Shown here one piece after another: positions 14,691-22,778 of a stretch of DNA of 64,000 nt. Numbering within the stretch: the first letter of the stretch is position 1; every line of letters begins with the position of its first letter. Below the pieces are notes generated by a model. That model saw nothing but the letters and a program-made list of their open reading frames with translations. It searched no databases and was not told the origin of the DNA. The position numbers and the translations under genes were made by a program. This DNA is from Pirellulales bacterium (GTDB lineage: Bacteria; Planctomycetota; Planctomycetia; Pirellulales; PALSA-1355): assembly GCA_963733035.1 (NCBI GenBank), contig CAVTBU010000009.1:128001-192000 (forward strand), written 5' to 3'.

Positions 14691-15858
14691 CTAGAGCACT
14701 CGGCCAAGCCCGTCGACCAACTGGTCGATCATGGACCGCGTGTGCGTGGCAAAAACGGCGACGCGCAGCATACCATCGGGCCCTGCGCCTGCATAGTTGC
14801 GGGTGTAGGCGATGGCGATACCAGCCGCGAGCAACTGCTGCTGAACGCGCTGCATGTCGGCGGCATTTTCGAGGCGGAAGCTAATGATGGGTGTCGGCCA
14901 GGGTTCAATCTCCAAGCCAAGGTCTCGCAAGGCGTCGCGCGCGTATTTGGCATTGTCCGCTAACTGCGACCTTAGGGCCGGCTCGGTCTGTATGATCTCC
15001 AGCGCCCTGGCCGTTGCGGCGGCGACGGGAGCGGCCGGCGCGCTTGCGCCGCGAAACCAGCCACTCGACTGGCGCACGTCGCTCAGGAATTCGCGCGTGC
15101 CGACGATCGCGCCGCCCTGACCGCCGACGGCTTTGCTCAGCGTCGTGGTGTGGTAGACGGCCGTGCGCTCGACTGCCGGCGCAGACGCGTTAATTCGCTG
15201 CGGCGCGACGCCCGCCAGTTCCAAGCTGCCGCGACCGCCGCTGCCGAGGACGGCCATGCCATGCGCATCATCCACGAGCAACATGGCACCCTGATAGGCA
15301 TCGAGGATCGATAGATAGTCGCCAAGCGGCGCCAACCGGCCACTAGCGGCGAATACACCGTCGGTCATCACCAGCGGGCGCTGGCCTGGGTGCAGTTCGT
15401 GGCGCAAGCAATTCCGACATGTGCTGGGGATCGCGATGCCGAAACGCCAGCGGTGGACGGCTTAGCTCGGTCAGCCAATGCGTAGCCTCGCGCAGACAAT
15501 CGTGTGCCGACTCATCGATGAGTACCAGATCCACGAACTTGCTGAGCGCCGCTGCCAGGGCAAAATTCACGGCGTAGCCACTGACCAGGTAGCAGCACTC
15601 CTCGGCACCGAGAAACGTTGCCGTGCGCCGCTCGACTTCGAGAACTGGGGGACTAGTTCCATAGCCGCTGCGCGTGGTGGCCGTATGAATGCCGTACTTG
15701 ACACACGCCTGTTCGGCCGCCGCGATGACGGCCGGATGGCCTTGCAATGCCAGGTAGCCGGTGCCGGCGAAATACAAACATTCGCGGCCGCTCAACCATG
15801 CGTGCGTTGCCGGCGCCGATTCCATCAGGGGGAAATCATCTGAGGCCGGACGGGACAT
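14691..15858 (-). CDS. PLP-dependent alpha-oxoamine synthase (8-amino-7-oxononanoate synthase-like, aminotransferase class II); apparent frameshift near 15408
   Basis: N-half: FAGTGYLAL, SGYAVN, DESAH, FRH. C-half: TDGVF, VDDAHG, TLSKAVGGQGG (PLP Lys). Removing one T joins the frames. Confidence 0.75.
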
Positions 15859-15974
15859 GGTCTGCTGCTGGCGAAGGACCGAATGTTGCTGCGGCCACGA
15901 TTTTAGCCCGGAATGAGACCTGGATAGTCTCAAATGATCCCCCGAGGCCGGAATTAATCAGGGATGGGAGGGTA

Positions 15975-16002
15975 TTGACTTGGTGATTTGGGTAATTAGG
16001 GT
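15975..16002 (+). promoter_or_regulatory. Candidate sigma70-type promoter for subunit gene A
   Basis: TTGACT-N16-TAGGGT in an AT-rich patch about 140 nt upstream of ATG 16143. Confidence 0.35.
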
Positions 16003-16142
16003 GGATTCTTACTGCGATCGACTCTGATACGCTGCGCAGCACTTCGAGTCGCAAGCACCCGGTTTCCGCCCACGTTGGAAAATCCTTCGTTGGGCTCGTT
16101 ATCTCATTGCCCCACTGCGACTTTTGACGAGGATTTCCCCCT

Positions 16143-16571
16143 ATGAAGAACATTCTGATTCCCTGTGCCGCGTTGGCGCTGGTCTGTGGTCTGATTTCCG
16201 TGTCGACGGCGGGCGAACCCGCTGCCATTTCCGACTCAACGCTCGGCAGCATGGGCTTGGGCGGCATGCAGAAGATGTCGGATACCGATGGCCTTTTGGT
16301 CCGTGGTAAGGGCTACACCGGCTACGGCGGTGGCACCTCGGCCTCCGTTTGGGGCGGGAGCAGCGCCAACTGGTACGGTGGCCAGTCGTCGAACAACAAC
16401 TATGAAGCCAGCTCGTCGTGGTTGGGCCACGGCTCGTCGGCCACGGGTGGCAGCCTGAGCTTCGCCGGCAAGATCCAGGGCAGTTACGCGGCCGACCCGA
16501 CCGGTTCGGCTCTGTCGCTCACGATTTGCGGTGGTTTCGCCGGTGGCGGGGCCTTCGCGATTGCTCATTAA
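16143..16571 (+). CDS. Secreted Gly/Ser-rich small protein A (putative Fap-like amyloid subunit/precursor)
   Basis: Sec signal ending ..VSTA. Conserved LGSMGLGGMQKMSDTDGLLVRGKG, then a nearly uncharged G/S/A/N/W/Y/F core. Paralogous to the next two genes. Confidence 0.8.
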   Translation: MKNILIPCAALALVCGLISVSTAGEPAAISDSTLGSMGLGGMQKMSDTDGLLVRGKGYTGYGGGTSASVWGGSSANWYGGQSSNNNYEASSSWLGHGSSATGGSLSFAGKIQGSYAADPTGSALSLTICGGFAGGGAFAIAH

Positions 16572-16606
16572 CCCAGTCTCGGTCCCAACGCCGACCTCAC
16601 TCTTCG

Positions 16607-16646
16607 AAGACCTGGTTGCCCCCCGCTCGGCAGCCAGGTCTTTTTT
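16607..16646 (+). terminator. Rho-independent terminator after gene A
   Basis: AAGACCTGGTTGCC / GGCAGCCAGGTCTT stem plus T-run. Confidence 0.85.
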
Positions 16647-16769
16647 AATTGGATTTGCCAAAAACATGCGGGCTTGGGGAACATTTGGACGCTGAAACGC
16701 CGGTTTTTGGCAGCGAGCAGGTGCTGTTGGAGAACTAGTGAAGATAGTAGGAATATACCGATCACCCTG

Positions 16770-16798
16770 TTGACAATGGTTTTAGCGGCAATTAGTCT
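16770..16798 (+). promoter_or_regulatory. Candidate strong sigma70-type promoter for subunit gene B
   Basis: Consensus TTGACA, 17-nt spacer, TAGTCT. Confidence 0.55.
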
Positions 16799-16959
16799 GC
16801 TACTCGATTGGTCGCTGCGCAGCATCAATCCGGTTTGACAGTCGAGGCCAGCAGGCCGCTGTTGAACGCGTTTTCCCTCATTTTGCCAGGCGCATGCCAG
16901 CCATGTCGCCACCTTCGGGGGATGTCTAGCTACGGTGATTCCACTTTCATGAGGACACA

Positions 16960-17355
16960 ATGATGAAGCACGTTGCAATTGCTTGTGCGGCAGTGATGTT
17001 GTTTGCTGCCACGGCGACGGCTGCCGAGCCGGTTGCCAAGTCGACCCTCAGCAGCATGGGCCTGGGCGGGATGCAGCAGATGTCGGACAACGACGGTCTG
17101 GCTGTCCGCGGTAAGGGTACGTTCGCCCACGTATGGGGCGGAAGCCAGGCGAATTGGTACGGCGGTCAGTCGTCGACCAACAACTACAATGCAGGCGCCC
17201 AGTGGCTCGGCAAGAGCTCGACCGCCGTTGGCGGTAGCTTGAGCTTTGCTGGCAAGCTGCAGGTCAGCGGTGCCGCCGATCCGACCGGCTTCGCCATCCA
17301 AGGCCAATTGGGTGTTGGCTTCGCCGGTGGTGCGGCGTTCGCCAAGGCTTGGTAA
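16960..17355 (+). CDS. Secreted Gly/Ser-rich small protein B (putative Fap-like subunit)
   Basis: GAGGA RBS. Signal ending ..ATA. LSSMGLGGMQQMSDNDGLAVRGKG; core VWGGSQANWYGGQSSTNNY...GGSLSFAGK...GFAGGAAFA. Confidence 0.85.
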   Translation: MMKHVAIACAAVMLFAATATAAEPVAKSTLSSMGLGGMQQMSDNDGLAVRGKGTFAHVWGGSQANWYGGQSSTNNYNAGAQWLGKSSTAVGGSLSFAGKLQVSGAADPTGFAIQGQLGVGFAGGAAFAKAW

Positions 17356-17404
17356 CAAGCGGAATCGCTTGCTCATTGCGGCAAGTGCTCCCGTCTTTGC
17401 ACAA

Positions 17405-17451
17405 GCTGGCCCTGTCGTCGAATAGTCGGTGACAGGGCCAGCCCCTTTTTT
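17405..17451 (+). terminator. Terminator-like hairpin between genes B and C
   Basis: GCTGGCCCTGTC / GACAGGGCCAGC stem followed by CCCTTTTTT. Confidence 0.7.
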
Positions 17452-17464
17452 CAGCGAGGCCTCG

Positions 17465-17794
17465 ATGACAAAGATCTTCGTGTTAACGATCGCCCTGGTG
17501 ATTTCGTGCAGTGCAATTGCGGTGGCGGCCGATCAAGCCGTCTCCGCCGCGACGCTGGGAGCGATGGGCATCGGCCAGATGCAACCGCTGTCGGACGAAG
17601 ATGGCCTGGCCGTACGCGGTAAAGGCACTTTCGCCAACGTCTGGGGTTTTAGCCAGGCGAGGTGGGGCGGCCAATCGTCGTCGAACAACTACTCGGCCGG
17701 TTCCAGCTGGTTGGGACAGAGTTCTTCGGCATTGGGAGGAAGCCTAAGCTTTGGTGGGAAGGCGCAACTCGGCTTTGGTCATTTCGGTTGGTAA
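17465..17794 (+). CDS. Secreted Gly/Ser-rich small protein C (shorter paralogue)
   Basis: Signal ending ..AVA. LGAMGIGQMQPLSDEDGLAVRGKG. Lacks the AADPTG...GFAGG tail found in A and B. Confidence 0.8.
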   Translation: MTKIFVLTIALVISCSAIAVAADQAVSAATLGAMGIGQMQPLSDEDGLAVRGKGTFANVWGFSQARWGGQSSSNNYSAGSSWLGQSSSALGGSLSFGGKAQLGFGHFGW

Positions 17795-17822
17795 CGACCA
17801 TCTGAGGACGCCAGTAAACGAC

Positions 17823-17865
17823 CGGGCCCTGTCCACCTGTAAAGTTGGACAGGGCCCGTTTTTTT
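17823..17865 (+). terminator. Rho-independent terminator after gene C
   Basis: CGGGCCCTGTCCA / TGGACAGGGCCCG stem plus T7. Confidence 0.85.
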
Positions 17866-17882
17866 GCTTTCCGCAAGGTGCG

Positions 17883-19070
17883 CTAGTACATGATACCCGC
17901 ACCGATCGTCAGGCCCACGAGTTGGAACAATATGTCGCCAGCCTGAGTGGTGGCAAAGCTCGAAGCGGTTCCGCTGTTGGCGACCGACAGTGCTCCCGCG
18001 GCCACTCCGGCATTCGCGTCCCAGTATTGCCACTCGATGCCCGTGCGAAAGAACGCTCGGCCGGGAAGGCACCGCAAGCACGCATCCCATTGCAGTCCGG
18101 CACCGAGTTCCATGATGAACATGTCGCCGTTGCCCTTGGCCAGGGCGCCGTCGGTCGACTCAAAAAACCCGGAACCGTTGGCCGCTTGCGTGTTGGTTTG
18201 CGCGGTGGCAACGCCGTTGCCCCACAAGATCGAGTAGCGGTTGGTGAAATAGGCTTTGAGAGCCCCATCGTCGCAGAACAGCGGCCGCAGCCCCCACACT
18301 CCGAATGTCAAGCCGGCCCCGTTGAACTGCTGGCCGGCGTACGACATCGACTGCACGAGGTCGCTGCCAAACGTGTTCTGTGTCCATAAGCTGCGGTCGT
18401 TGTTTACCGAGGCGTACCGCGCTCCCAGGAATCCGTACATGTCCCAATTGTGCCAGCAGAAGCGGCGCTGCACCTCCAGGTCGACAGTATAGATGTTGAA
18501 CGTGTCGAACAGGATGACGCCACTCTGCACGGCGTCGGGGATTGCCGGAATAAAACCGTTTGCCGACGTCCCGGAGTTCCAGTAGCGGCCAACCAGCCCC
18601 CAGCACTCACCCATCACACCCATGGTGACTCGAGGCCCGACAAGGAGCCCACCTTCGACCGAACCGAGTGCCGAGTTGTTCACAATCGACACGTCGCCGA
18701 GGCTGTTCGAAAAACCATTGTTGAGAAAGTTGCGACTGATTTGCGGCCAAAAGAAGGTCGCCTCGATGCCCACGACGAACTGGCAACGCGGGCCGCAGCC
18801 GCCCGTGTAGCAAGTCGTGCACTGCCCTGGAAGCGGAGCCACGGCGCTTTGTGCTTCGGGCGTTTCAACCGGCTCCTGGGCATCCCAGCGGCTGGTAGGC
18901 ACTTGCGCCGGAGCGGGTGTCGCCGGCTGCACGGTTTGTTGCGCGGAAACCTGTTGGATGAGAGGCGGACGGAACACCGGTTCGGTGAAATCGTCGCCAT
19001 GAGCTGAGCCGGCGGCGGCACATCCAATCGCCGCGATCAGCGAGCAGAACCATTTTCGAGTTGTCTTCAT
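17883..19070 (-). CDS. Planctomycete outer-membrane beta-barrel protein (BBP7/Lpg1974-like)
   Basis: Signal peptide, Pro/Gln linker, Cys-rich patch. Alternating beta-strands (VGIEATFFWP, YTVDLEVQRR, ELGAGLQW, RTGIEWQYW). C-terminal aromatic residue (GLTIGAGIMY). GAGGAG RBS. Confidence 0.7.
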   Translation of the reverse strand: MKTTRKWFCSLIAAIGCAAAGSAHGDDFTEPVFRPPLIQQVSAQQTVQPATPAPAQVPTSRWDAQEPVETPEAQSAVAPLPGQCTTCYTGGCGPRCQFVVGIEATFFWPQISRNFLNNGFSNSLGDVSIVNNSALGSVEGGLLVGPRVTMGVMGECWGLVGRYWNSGTSANGFIPAIPDAVQSGVILFDTFNIYTVDLEVQRRFCWHNWDMYGFLGARYASVNNDRSLWTQNTFGSDLVQSMSYAGQQFNGAGLTFGVWGLRPLFCDDGALKAYFTNRYSILWGNGVATAQTNTQAANGSGFFESTDGALAKGNGDMFIMELGAGLQWDACLRCLPGRAFFRTGIEWQYWDANAGVAAGALSVANSGTASSFATTQAGDILFQLVGLTIGAGIMY

Positions 19071-19747
19071 CTCCTCACCCCTCCTGGGAGAGCTGGTTGC
19101 CACGGCGGGCATCGCCAGCGAATGCGAACCGTATTTGTCTAATGTTCAGAACGCGCTTGGGTCGTCCACCGCTTCGAACGCCTCGGCCGGTCTTACCCCA
19201 TCCGACTTTGACGTTCGATCCCCGCGGCAAACCGCGAACCGGTGCAATGGCGCGAGGCGCCACCGCACTTTTCGTTGCACGTATCATCGTCCGCATGATC
19301 GGACGAATTGATGCCTCATGTCTTCGGCGGATCAACACTTACAACCGATACGCCCAGAATATGCGTTACGGCTGACGCAACCGTTACAGATTCCGCCGCA
19401 AGTAGTCTTCCGGCCGGACGCGTGAGATGCTGTCAACCCCCGGCGAGCAGCCGCAAGTCCAAGGGGCAAAAAGAGAAAGCTGCGTAATGCAGCCGTCTGT
19501 AAAGCTGGGGATCCTGGCGAAACTTTGGCGGCTCGTATGACTGTTCTCATTGTATGGGATATGGCGGTCGATCCAGTTCCAAGGGCTGTAACGGTTGTAC
19601 CCGGATCGAAGAAGGTGCCGCAGCCTTGGAAACAAGTTGAGTTGAGACCATCAGGTTGCCTGGTTCGCACAAATCTCGTGGTGTGCGGGCCAATTTGCAG
19701 GCTACCGAACCGACAGGCAGCGGGCATCAGTAGTAAAAGGGTGGGCC

Positions 19748-21097
19748 ATGGATGAACCGCACGGGATCTCGGGACGACGCCTCCCGCAGCGATCCGCGCG
19801 ACGAGTCTTCGCCGCAGGGCTACTAGTTCTGTGCGCGCTCAACGTGGCCCCGGCCCAGGGCGACGAGCCGGAGGGTCCCCGCGCCCTTTCGGCCGTCGCA
19901 ACAACACCCGCGGCACAGCCAATTTCGCTGCCGCCGAGGTCACACCGCCTGCCGCCGGTCGAAGCGTCAACGACGTCCGGGTTTGCGAGCTACGCCGCCG
20001 GCCAATCGGCGCCACTGTTCGCCGACCCGTACGACGGCCAGCAGGTCAACTACATAACCGCGGCACCCGGCGGGCCGGCGGCTTCGACGTCAAATCCGCT
20101 CACGGCCCTGACTCCCGGTCAGCCATTGATTCGTTTTTCGGGCATGCAAGATCCAGACGCTCCGCGTCCGCCGGCCGAGAAGAACGCGGATTCCGCCGCC
20201 GAAGGCGGCCCAGATACGGAAGCTGGCGAGGGGGCCGAACAAACCTACGGACAAGCGCCGACCAACAACTCGCTGCAGTTTCTGCGCGACGTCGACGTCT
20301 TGCTCGCGCCTGGCAAGTGGCAGTTCGATACCGGCTTCGTCTACACGCACTTCTCCAATAACTTTCCCGTCGCCCTCATCAACGGTGGAGGAGACGTGGT
20401 GGGCGTGGAACAAGGCGAGGTACGGCGCCGGTTGCTCTACACTCCGCTGGCCTATCGCTACGGCATAACGAACAACATTCAGTTCTTCTCCTTCATGCCA
20501 GTCGGGTTTTCCAACACGCAGTTCTCGTCGCTCAACACCAGCGAAACCACGAACGTCAGCGGTTTGGGCGATCTGACGGCCGGCGTGAGCATCCACCTGA
20601 TCAAAGGAGAAGACCAGATGCCGGACGTGATCGGCACGGTCGGCTTCACGGCGCCGACCGGAAAGTTTTCGACGCCGATCTTTGGTCTTGTGCCGGGATC
20701 CAATCTGGGCCAGGGATACTGGGCCTACAACGCGCAATTGCTGTTCATTAACCGTTACGACCCGGTGATCGTGTTTTACGGAGGTGGTTACCGGCACTTG
20801 TGGGAGCGCAGCTTCAACGGTCAGCTGATCGCGCCAGGCGAACAAGTGAACTACATGCTTGGCGTCGGCTTCGCCGTCAACGATCGCGTTACACTGAGTT
20901 CCACGTTCCAGGGCTACTACATTACAAATACGTTCATCAACGGCTCGAACCTTCGCGGCTCGAACCTGGAGCCGTTGAGCATGCGATTCGCTGCAACGAT
21001 CGTGCGAAACTGCCGAATTATCGAACCATTCGTGCAATTAGGGGCGACGAATTCCGCCCCGCGGGTCAACGTAGGCGTGGTCGTAACGTTCTACTAG
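19748..21097 (+). CDS. FapF-like outer-membrane transporter (COG4313/MetA-pathway-type beta-barrel)
   Basis: Signal and low-complexity linker, then GKWQFDTGFVY, GLGD, MPDVIGTVGFTAPTGK, GQGYW, RYDPVIVF, GVGFAVNDRVTLS, LGATNSAP and a C-terminal Tyr. These match FapF motifs as I recall them, in the same order. Confidence 0.75.
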   Translation: MDEPHGISGRRLPQRSARRVFAAGLLVLCALNVAPAQGDEPEGPRALSAVATTPAAQPISLPPRSHRLPPVEASTTSGFASYAAGQSAPLFADPYDGQQVNYITAAPGGPAASTSNPLTALTPGQPLIRFSGMQDPDAPRPPAEKNADSAAEGGPDTEAGEGAEQTYGQAPTNNSLQFLRDVDVLLAPGKWQFDTGFVYTHFSNNFPVALINGGGDVVGVEQGEVRRRLLYTPLAYRYGITNNIQFFSFMPVGFSNTQFSSLNTSETTNVSGLGDLTAGVSIHLIKGEDQMPDVIGTVGFTAPTGKFSTPIFGLVPGSNLGQGYWAYNAQLLFINRYDPVIVFYGGGYRHLWERSFNGQLIAPGEQVNYMLGVGFAVNDRVTLSSTFQGYYITNTFINGSNLRGSNLEPLSMRFAATIVRNCRIIEPFVQLGATNSAPRVNVGVVVTFY

Positions 21098-21153
21098 TCG
21101 CCCCGCCAGTCGAGCATGTCAGGTCTTTCCAGCAGCGAATAAGGGAGCTTCGC

Positions 21154-21921
21154 ATGGCCGCACAATTCGCTCATCGCTGGGTCTGGCACCCACGAAACAT
21201 CCGCAACACTTGTCTGGCGTGGCTGGTGGCGTGTTTCCTGTCCGCATTGGCGGCTCCGGCTTGCGCTCAATTCAACCAATACACGCGGGCTCCTATCCGA
21301 AACCCAGATCGAATCATTCGCGAATACGTTTGGAGCTACAAGGAACTGCGCAAGCGCCAGGTGGTAATGCAGAAGCTCGACTACTCATGCGGCGCCGCGT
21401 CGCTGGCAACGATCTGCCGTTACTATTGGGGCGATAATATCACGGAGGAGACTTTTCTGCGGCTGATTCCGAAGCTGAAGCTCACCGCCGCACAAATCAA
21501 GGATCGCATTGAGAACGGACTCACGCTGACCGATCTGCGCGACATGGCCAACCTGGCGGGTTACCAGTCGTCGATGGGGAAAGTGAAGTTCTCGGAACTG
21601 GCCGAGGCCAAAGTGCCGGTAATTGTCGGTATCACGGTGCGCAAGCACGATCACTTTGCCGTCTTTCGCGGCACCGACGGCTATTACGTCTATCTGGCCG
21701 ACCCCATTCGCGGCAATATCCGCGTGGTGGCCGACACGTTTGTGCGGGAATGGCAACAGAATGCGATCCTGGTCGTCGCCAAGCCCGGCGCGAAGGTAAA
21801 GGAGGTCAATCCGATGGGCGTGCGGTTCCCGGAAATCTTCCGTGGGCTGCTGAACGACCAGACGGTGAACCGCAACTGGACAATGAGCACGGTTCCCAAC
21901 CCGGTCCGCATCGGACAGTAG
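21154..21921 (+). CDS. Stand-alone secreted C39 family cysteine peptidase (FapD-like)
   Basis: Signal-like segment. SYKELR...QKLDYSCGAASLATI (Gln/Cys), DHFAV (His), LADPIRG (Asp), F...W. No ABC transporter domains. Confidence 0.85.
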   Translation: MAAQFAHRWVWHPRNIRNTCLAWLVACFLSALAAPACAQFNQYTRAPIRNPDRIIREYVWSYKELRKRQVVMQKLDYSCGAASLATICRYYWGDNITEETFLRLIPKLKLTAAQIKDRIENGLTLTDLRDMANLAGYQSSMGKVKFSELAEAKVPVIVGITVRKHDHFAVFRGTDGYYVYLADPIRGNIRVVADTFVREWQQNAILVVAKPGAKVKEVNPMGVRFPEIFRGLLNDQTVNRNWTMSTVPNPVRIGQ

Positions 21922-22079
21922 GTCAATTGCCCGCCCGGCGACGGGCTTCCGGCAAGGACATCCGTGGAACGACGTCGCGACGCTTGCGGCAATTTGGCCA
22001 CAAACGCGGGATGCAATTTCTTGACCAGCGAGCTACGATTGAGCAGCGGCGGGGTCGCCAGGGTCGTAAAGGAAATCCC

Positions 22080-22778
22080 ATGTCCGAGATGTCCGAGCCA
22101 AGTTCGTCGGAATACCACGGTGAGCGCCTGGAGTTCTTAACGGTTCTGGGGCTGGCTCCGCCGGTTACCGAGGAGGACGTCAAGCAGGCATACCTCGTCA
22201 AAGCCCGCACCGCGCACCCGGACCAGGGAGGAGACGTCGAGCAGTTCAAGCGGCTTCAAGAAGCGTTCGAGCAGGCTACGGAGTACGCCCGTTTCAAGTC
22301 GAGCCGCATGCAATGGCTCAGCCGGTGGGTCGAGCAATATGCCGAGCAAGACAAGTTCATCGAGCGCATCAAAGGCCTGGGGGGGCACGTCGAGGTGAAG
22401 GCCTCGGACCCGATGACCCGCTCGATCGGGCCCGACTTTGCCGTCGTGCTCGACAAGCTGACGGGCATCTCGCTGGAAGGTCCTAACATCGACGACGCCA
22501 CGATGGCGGAACTCGTGAGCCAGAAGCGGATGCTCGCCGGCCTGCACAAACTAGCACTCCTCGATACGTCCGTCACCTACGTTGGTCTTCTCAAAGTTCG
22601 AGAGTTGCAAAACCTTCGCGAGTTGGATTTGAGCGGCACGGAAGTCGACCCCGCCACGCTTGAGCCAGTGCTGCGAGAACTGCGCTCGCTCGAAGTGCTG
22701 AAACTCGACCGGACCGGCATTGGCTGGCCGGCACGGGTGAAGTTGCGAGTGCGGTATCGCAACTTGACGATCTCCTAG
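22080..22778 (+). CDS. DnaJ-domain protein with C-terminal leucine-rich repeats
   Basis: VLGL..VKQAY..ARTAHPDQGG (HPD motif). LRRs LRELDLSGTEV and LEVLKLDRTGI. Confidence 0.8.
   Translation: MSEMSEPSSSEYHGERLEFLTVLGLAPPVTEEDVKQAYLVKARTAHPDQGGDVEQFKRLQEAFEQATEYARFKSSRMQWLSRWVEQYAEQDKFIERIKGLGGHVEVKASDPMTRSIGPDFAVVLDKLTGISLEGPNIDDATMAELVSQKRMLAGLHKLALLDTSVTYVGLLKVRELQNLRELDLSGTEVDPATLEPVLRELRSLEVLKLDRTGIGWPARVKLRVRYRNLTIS

Follow-up and report, generated by a model that had tools for sequence, protein, structure and literature searches.

A stretch of 64,000 nucleotides from a Pirellulales bacterium (GenBank assembly GCA_963733035.1, contig CAVTBU010000009.1, positions 128,001 to 192,000; hereafter the window, whose numbering is used throughout) contains three genes for small secreted proteins, two genes for outer-membrane barrels and one gene for a stand-alone C39 cysteine peptidase, all within 6 kb. 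The small proteins share a conserved leader ending in Arg-Gly behind their signal peptides, and we here examine whether this leader is a tag read by the peptidase. Small protein A (16143 to 16571, forward strand, 142 residues) has its signal peptide at 16143-16211, its leader, which ends in VRG, at 16212-16307 and a Gly/Ser/Ala-rich core at 16308-16568. Small protein B (16960 to 17355, forward strand, 131 residues) is divided in the same way into signal (16960-17022), leader (17023-17112) and core (17113-17352), as is small protein C (17465 to 17794, forward strand, 109 residues; signal 17465-17527, leader 17528-17620), which has a shorter core (17621-17791). The open reading frame (ORF) of gene C was first listed from a GTG at 17429, but this GTG falls within the terminator hairpin of gene B (17405-17442), and the ATG at 17465 is therefore the likely start.

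Each of the three proteins has a signal peptide ending in A-x-A, followed by a leader of 30-32 residues with the pattern TLxxMGLxxMQxMSDxxGxxVRG and then the core. The translated ORFs confirm what a first-pass annotation of the window had reported, namely the motif L..MG(L/I)G.MQ.(M/L)SD.DGL.VRGKG behind the Sec signal in all three proteins. Its statement that acidic residues lie mostly ahead of the RG and that the core is almost uncharged is roughly right, given that the leaders of A, B and C hold 4, 3 and 4 acidic residues and the cores 2 in 87, 1 in 80 and 0 in 57, with 2, 4 and 3 Lys/Arg. The proteins are paralogues, the other two being 65% and 55% identical to A over their full length, and their cores (WGGSQANWYGGQSS.NNY...GGSLSFAGK) are as well kept as the leader motif. 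Hence, the window alone cannot single out the leader. Scans of the three proteins against Pfam and NCBIfam gave chance-level matches only (DUF4179, E 0.056; Asr, E 0.2), and the clusters obtained from a protein atlas search were all unnamed ones of Planctomycetota.

It is the wider family that sets the leader apart. A word-indexed search for relatives returned 102 clusters at E<=1e-3 among 150 candidates, and a full scan of 1.84 billion representatives returned 206 at E<=1e-3, 42 at E<=1e-10 and 1 at E<=1e-30, these 206 representatives being clustered at 50% identity. Many relatives from the full scan align over query residues 2-55 alone. In an alignment of 116 diverse relatives (A3, numbered after small protein B) mean column identity is 15% overall, and the best-kept columns past the signal peptide are L30 (113 of 116), G34 (all 116), D43 (108), G46 (105), V/I49 (116), R50 (115) and G51 (116). 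Conservation falls off right past Gly51. At position 52, 66 relatives have Lys, 20 have Met and 9 have Gln; Gly occupies position 53 in 95. The leader is the conserved part of the family and the cores are changeable. A hydrophobic-(R/K)-G anchor is present at residues 25-90 in 237 of 246 family proteins, and 50 of the 237 cores excised at it contain less than 50% Gly/Ser/Ala/Thr/Asn, including His/Lys-repeat, Cys/Pro-repeat and Pro/His-rich types. Most Gly/Ser-rich cores retain a few Gly columns (G60, G91, G98 and G124) and a C-terminal GG..A.A motif. No leader was found on longer proteins (231-2000 residues) among 41 candidates, which is weak evidence.

Two observations concern the cores themselves. 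Most of the Gly/Ser-rich cores end in (S/A)GG(G/S)xxA(F/Y)A-x (A3 reference positions 122-131), with a last residue that is often Arg, His, Trp, Phe or Lys, and this C-terminal motif might, besides the leader, be another recognition element, for instance one read by either barrel. More exotic cores follow the leader in four family proteins (P0204, P0226, P0228 and P0242), with KDHKQGD, CxPKC and GFDHKK repeats and a Pro/His/Phe-rich tail, which hints at metal-binding or adhesive cargos.

The peptidase gene (21154 to 21921, forward strand) encodes 255 residues that start with a signal or anchor and end in a conserved tail. At 61.9 bits against a gathering cut-off of 22, the protein is a member of Pfam Peptidase_C39 (PF03412). 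The best NCBIfam model is FapD (NF058616, E 4.8e-23), for which the score of 81.6 bits lies below the cut-off of 330, and by this comparison the peptidase is a relative of FapD, not an equivalog; the second-best named model is FilB (NF050078, E 2.8e-20, 72.8 bits against a cut-off of 475). Q73, C79, H167 and D183 are invariant in 34 aligned peptidase sequences, and the Cys and His stretches align to LahT150, which is among the sequence relatives in the PDB (LahT150 6mpz, PCAT1 4ry2 and ComA 3k8u). An AlphaFold2 (AF2) model has a mean predicted local distance difference test score (pLDDT) of 81.5. The tail (21811-21921, residues ~219-255) reads NPMGxRxxExxRGxLNxQ, with R230, G231 and Q236 invariant, and its hydrophobic-Arg-Gly echoes the VRG of the small proteins; possible roles are those of a pseudo-substrate, a propeptide removed by self-cleavage or a docking peptide. 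Folding back of the tail onto the peptidase is not seen in the AF2 model, in which confidence is low for this part (pLDDT < 50 at residues 231-249).

Leader and peptidase occur together. The window's genome (6.65 Mb, 92% complete) has three genes found by the leader profile and one gene each for the C39 peptidase, the FapF-like barrel and the porin-like barrel omp409 (both described below), all at this locus. We surveyed 301 genomes of the class, sampled from 166 genera, with thresholds of E<=1e-3 for the leader family and E<=1e-10 for the peptidase. The leader family was found in 16 genomes and the peptidase in the same 16, with neither in the other 285, and a leader gene lies, by its coordinates, at most 6 kb from the C39 gene in all 16. 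The linkage between leader family and stand-alone C39 that the first-pass annotation had proposed to look for is thus present throughout the positives. Presence and absence of the two agree inside genera too (5 of 7 genomes in genus g4 and 2 of 4 in g2 are positive), but the positives are kin from 10 of the 166 genera, not independent cases, and no probability is attached to the match. Local searches found omp409, the FapF-like barrel and the C39 peptidase together in 14 of the 15 other positive genomes, as well as at locus L035; in the fifteenth genome (L030) only the FapF-like barrel and the peptidase are seen at E<=1e-5, and the match of the leader gene there is borderline (E 5e-4).

A species-genome collection gave 14 loci, with L001 and L016 counted once because they are the same contig. 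Half of them have the full module (L001-L004, L006, L011 and L014), and in two (L005 and L010) the contig ends just past the porin-like gene. The other five have a leader gene without a module gene in the available stretch (L007-L009, L012 and L013). Three of these (L007-L009) share a genome bin with L005, and the C39 gene of that bin lies on another contig, whereas L013 (10001-10474) is on a complete chromosome with the full module and two leader genes ~3.49 Mb away. Substrate genes can therefore be dispersed, and one machine may serve dispersed substrates. Leader genes far from a module were also seen at L031 (8053-8631) and L032 (5763-6278), and some dispersed cores are Lys/Gly-rich or of a GGGDHGGG type.

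Binding of the leader by the peptidase is supported by a model of the complex between the mature peptidase (residues 40-255, with the alignment of 34 sequences) and residues 22-66 of small protein B (with the alignment of 116 sequences). The leader is placed in the peptidase groove with a median score of 0.83, compared with 0.00 for the best control; that mark is attained by 116 of 157 solved complexes and 2 of 215 mismatched pairs, a calibration that is only rough here, given that the model used its own alignments. Agreement among the three runs extends to at least 87% of contacts, and pLDDT is at least 73 for the partner. On the peptidase side the confident interface takes in residues 73 and 76-80 (Gln73 and Cys79), 165-168 (His167) and hydrophobic patches; on the leader side it takes in residues 22-26, 29-30, 32-41, 43 and 45-54 and ends three residues past Arg50-Gly51. 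A peptidase-leader model of this kind had been among the checks proposed in the first-pass annotation, and it agrees with the proposal.

Two outer-membrane barrels complete the module. The FapF-like barrel (19748 to 21097, forward strand, 449 residues) begins with a signal peptide, after which come 138 Pro/Gly-rich residues on the periplasmic side and then the barrel itself. It matches NCBIfam FapF (NF058560) with E 3.8e-9 and 35.8 bits, which is below the equivalog cut-off of 700, and Pfam Phenol_MetA_deg with E 2.8e-4. Its only sequence relatives in the PDB are the FapF structures 5o65, 5o67 and 5o68 (E 7.5e-8), to which its APTGK motif aligns. The porin-like barrel omp409 (17883 to 19112, reverse strand), named for its 409-residue ORF, has a signal peptide, a Pro/Gln-rich linker containing Cys and a barrel, and its likely start is the Met of MKTTRKW at 19070. 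The protein of the window has no Pfam or NCBIfam match, although 4 of 17 orthologues have weak matches to Pfam Legionella_OMP. In its AF2 model (mean pLDDT 76) residues 97-394 form a barrel, and Foldseek ranks 9nh1, which is porin I of the Legionella Dot/Icm machine, first among the structural matches (E 2.3e-11, template modelling score 0.73 on the target). The omp409 family also has a Cys-rich stretch (for example CTTCYTGGCGPRC) between the Pro/Gln-rich linker and the first strand (17886-18900), in which C92 is invariant in the 17 orthologues.

We consider it probable, by a modest degree, that the locus is a Planctomycete (Pirellulales-type) two-step secretion module of the Fap/Nap type, in which the three small proteins are the substrates and the leader is both recognition and cleavage tag. 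The Sec signal, the conserved leader, the intact and periplasm-directed C39 peptidase, the FapF-related barrel, the strict linkage and the constant fourth component are all seen in the sequence. In the proposed pathway, the Sec signal would be removed at the conserved A-x-A site, and the leader would be retained on an unfolded periplasmic precursor and, following the complex model, dock in the C39 groove. The peptidase would then cut at the invariant Arg-Gly or one residue later, and the low-charge Gly/Ser/Ala/Asn-rich core would, by homology to FapF, cross the FapF-like barrel, with the always-linked porin-like barrel as a presumed helper or anchor of unspecified kind. Outside the cell the cores would most likely, by analogy with Fap subunits, form beta-rich surface fibres or a matrix, which is the weakest step of the proposal. 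The claim of the first-pass annotation that the motif is a second leader read by a C39 peptidase is supported by co-occurrence, by the intact C39 and by the complex model, whereas the cut itself is a prediction. The same leader also precedes unrelated cores and occurs in genes remote from the module, which points to a general role as address tag of the pathway.

The exact place of the cut can be read in two ways. A cut after Gly51, where conservation ends, would make Arg-Gly the last two leader residues. The double-glycine consensus is LSxxELxxIxGG, and on our own reading a cut after residue 52 would place V49, D45, S42, M41 and M38 at its positions -4, -8, -11, -12 and -15 and Gly51 at -2.

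Several points weigh against this reading of the locus. The leader lacks a canonical Gly-Gly and reads Arg-Gly-x-Gly, which leaves the cut site ambiguous. The FapF-like barrel is, judging from its composition, without a periplasmic coiled coil, because a region with 21 Pro and 14 Gly in 138 residues, whose longest Pro-free stretch is 18 residues, cannot form one, and the account of FapF homologues in PMC6173795 states that all of them have it. Small proteins A, B and C match no Fap model of NCBIfam or Pfam at E<=1, although it was not verified that NCBIfam includes models of FapB, FapC and FapE, and beyond the chance-level matches they match no other model of the two libraries, so that the fibre part of the proposal draws on composition and analogy. 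Locus L012 carries a leader gene but no C39 was found in its genome bin, for which completeness is not given. The kinship of the 16 positive genomes and the rough calibration of the complex score count here as well, and C39-leader complexes have already been solved, so that the high score may mirror likeness to those structures.

The cargo could be something other than fibre subunits. With the same machinery, the cores would be bioactive peptides, either microcin- or bacteriocin-like toxins or Nap-like autolysis peptides, and we regard this as a serious rival even though we think it unlikely. Cores of 57-87 residues that are rich in Gly/Ser/Ala and poor in charge resemble class II microcins, and a constant leader with hypervariable cores, several paralogues per locus, orphan copies (L007-L009, L013, L031 and L032) and a patchy spread (16 of 301 genomes) are typical of bacteriocin families. 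There is also a precedent in the nap island of Neisseria, where, in the parts of PMC11798529 that deal with it, a C39 peptidase and a FapF homologue are used for bacteriocin-like peptides. However, a conserved small membrane-protein ORF that could encode immunity was looked for and not found, the DNA blocks separating A from B being conserved in several frames, and the persistence of G60, G91, G98, G124 and the C-terminal GG..A.A across 116 relatives is more than expected for fast-evolving toxins. The Nap peptides are moreover cationic, whereas the present cores, with 2-4 Lys/Arg and 0-2 Asp/Glu in 57-87 residues, are near neutral. We favour fibre or matrix cargo because of the FapE-like low-charge composition, the several paralogues per locus, the separate terminators and the lack of an immunity gene among the ORFs found.

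A different objection leaves the cargo aside and concerns the fate of the leader, which might stay on the protein as a tag for docking or against aggregation; the C39 peptidase would then cut elsewhere, for example in its own tail or in the FapF-like barrel's Pro-rich linker, or would act mainly as a chaperone. FapF is considered a possible target of FapD, and some C39-like domains only chaperone, according to the relevant passages of PMC5557850 and PMC6173800; the peptidase tail, with its invariant hydrophobic-Arg-Gly at R230-G231, resembles the VRG of the substrates, and the missing Gly-Gly would also fit. We nevertheless think it improbable, given that all 34 sequences retain the catalytic Gln, Cys, His and Asp, that the modelled interface takes in the catalytic stretches and stops just past Arg-Gly, and that conservation drops right past Gly51, as at the cleavage sites of known leaders; the tail has low confidence in the AF2 model and is not seen folding back there. 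That the motif merely reflects shared ancestry of three recent paralogues, with no link to the peptidase, would account for a core as conserved as the leader within the window. This is already contradicted by a leader that persists in 206 representative clusters whose cores are unrelated and that, over 301 genomes, is present exactly where the peptidase is, and we give it almost no credence.

Among known systems, the closest comparison for the two-step module is Pseudomonas Fap (fapABCDEF). Both have Sec-exported substrates, a stand-alone periplasmic C39 peptidase for which FapD is the best NCBIfam model, small secreted proteins that are charge-poor and rich in Gly/Ser/Ala/Asn, and a barrel whose only solved sequence relative is FapF, with APTGK aligned. 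In the sections of PMC5557850 on FapD, the peptidase is periplasmic and its Cys38 is needed for Fap secretion, and the FapE N-terminus appears trimmed: no peptides came from the first ~70 residues of FapE, and the supplementary table lists FapE peptides from residue 72 on. The same sections state that FapD's target is not yet clear and that Fap proteins are without canonical C39 motifs. PMC6173800, in its remarks on distribution, notes fapD-fapF pairs in five further phyla and does not name substrates there, and the role of FapD is given only as 'precursor processing' in the corresponding statement of a 2026 preprint (10.64898/2026.10.01.755530). In contrast to Fap, the module scores far under the equivalog cut-offs (81.6 versus 330 and 35.8 versus 700 bits), its FapF-like barrel is without a coiled coil, and it always comes with a linked porin-like barrel. 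None of the small proteins matches a FapB, FapC or FapE model, no FapA is seen, and there is a sharply defined leader behind the signal peptide.

The likeness to the nap island is one of gene architecture only, with peptide genes adjoining a stand-alone C39 and a FapF-type channel. As outlined in PMC11798529, the island encodes the GG-peptides NapA-C, which are cationic, carry a Gly-Gly motif and are < 10 kDa, together with the C39 peptidase NapP and the FapF homologue NapF; periplasmic cleavage is proposed to precede export, and a holin-like protein, NapH, is suggested for the crossing of the inner membrane, the route itself being described there as unknown. It is also the precedent for the alternative raised in the first-pass annotation, export by Sec and a barrel instead of an ATP-binding cassette (ABC) transporter, which describes the same machinery as proposed here; by reading, the ORF list has no ABC transporter between 12 and 24 kb. 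Differences from the island are the Sec signal ahead of the leader, the Arg-Gly motif, the near-neutral cores and the extra porin-like barrel. Double-glycine leaders of class II bacteriocins and microcins, cut by the C39 domains of ABC exporters (PCAT1, LahT and ComA), share the peptidase fold family, the spaced hydrophobics, Ser and acidic residues, and the combination of conserved leader and variable cores. However, the present leader follows a Sec signal and is not N-terminal, it has the invariant pair Arg50-Gly51 where Gly-Gly, Gly-Ala or Gly-Ser would stand at -2/-1, and the 255-residue C39 peptidase is not fused to an ABC transporter and would act on the periplasmic side, with export through a FapF-type barrel. 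FilB of the Acinetobacter Fil pilus system is another stand-alone C39 peptidase of a surface-fibre system, although the score of the present peptidase lies far under the FilB cut-off.

Judged from the genes, what is new relative to Fap and Nap would be the combination of Sec signal and Arg-Gly leader, the varied cores, the barrel without coiled coil and the obligatory porin-like partner. In our search of the literature for Planctomycete reports and for 'FapD-like', 'FapF-like' and 'periplasmic C39' we found none that describes this module. Since 2017 it has been known that Fap secretion requires periplasmic C39 peptidases of the FapD type, and the passages on FapD in PMC5557850 and PMC6173800 describe the substrate and the recognition signal as undetermined. 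The leader family is a sharply defined candidate for that signal, with an invariant Arg-Gly, perfect linkage to one peptidase and a confident docking model. It suggests that the route through Sec, C39 and a FapF-type barrel extends beyond Proteobacteria and serves small unfolded proteins in general, and the Planctomycetes, whose surface biology is poorly known, gain a candidate fibre or peptide secretion system. A wider and more tentative idea, which we put forward as possible while leaning against it, is that the leader is the address tag of a distinct Planctomycete outer-membrane route, from Sec to a periplasmic C39 'gatekeeper' and on to the FapF-type barrel and its dedicated porin-like barrel, for a repertoire of small unfolded cargo. 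If so, the cargos of the route would be encoded both beside the machine and elsewhere and include Gly/Ser-rich fibre subunits and His/Lys-repeat and Cys/Pro-repeat peptides, Pseudomonas Fap and Neisseria Nap would be two special cases of one widespread leader-dependent pathway, and the Arg-Gly leader would be the first defined recognition signal for FapD-type peptidases.

Directly 3' of the peptidase gene lies a gene for a DnaJ J-domain and leucine-rich-repeat protein (22077-22778, forward strand), which is syntenic only in close relatives (L001-L004). This gene and the upstream aminotransferase and beta-lactamase-like genes were considered as parts of the module and rejected, because their synteny is confined to close relatives. 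Across the locus (16000-22000), a search of sequencing runs yielded no RNA run, and five DNA runs labelled soil metagenome contained at most 0.21 of the sampled words, from which we conclude nothing about expression or habitat. An Rfam scan of 15800-19800 gave one sub-threshold match, mir-9033 (24.5 bits against a gathering score of 100), which we take as chance.

The small genes also have regulatory elements of their own. A promoter-like TTGACT followed by TAGGGT and the palindrome GCTGCGCAGC lies 5' of gene A (15974 to 16040, forward strand), and 5' of gene B (16769 to 16823, forward strand) TTGACA, a 17-nucleotide spacer and TAGTCT are followed by the same palindrome, an arrangement kept in orthologous loci. 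The perfect palindrome occurs at 16031-16040 and 16814-16823, that is, twice in the window compared with 0.25 expected, ~100-145 nucleotides 5' of genes A and B and just past TTGAC(T/A)-17-TAG(G/T)(G/C)T hexamers; of its 36 copies in the genome, only these two are in a promoter-like context. In an alignment of the block 5' of gene B (A6), TGTTGACA and TGCTGCGCAGC are invariant in all six sequences, and the palindrome-promoter block is invariant in five orthologous loci. The palindrome is likely an operator or a hairpin of the 5' untranslated region for co-regulation of A and B. The conserved DNA between A and B is best read as promoter and 5' untranslated region and not as a gene, because its conservation is matched in several reading frames. 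Every small gene closes with its own strong hairpin terminator: an intrinsic terminator of 15 pairs and a T run 3' of gene A (16606 to 16643, forward strand), one of 17 pairs 3' of gene B (17405 to 17442, forward strand), and a hairpin with T runs (17822 to 17865, core 17836-17853, no strand assigned) between the convergent gene C and porin-like gene. Separate strong terminators are as expected for abundantly made subunits.

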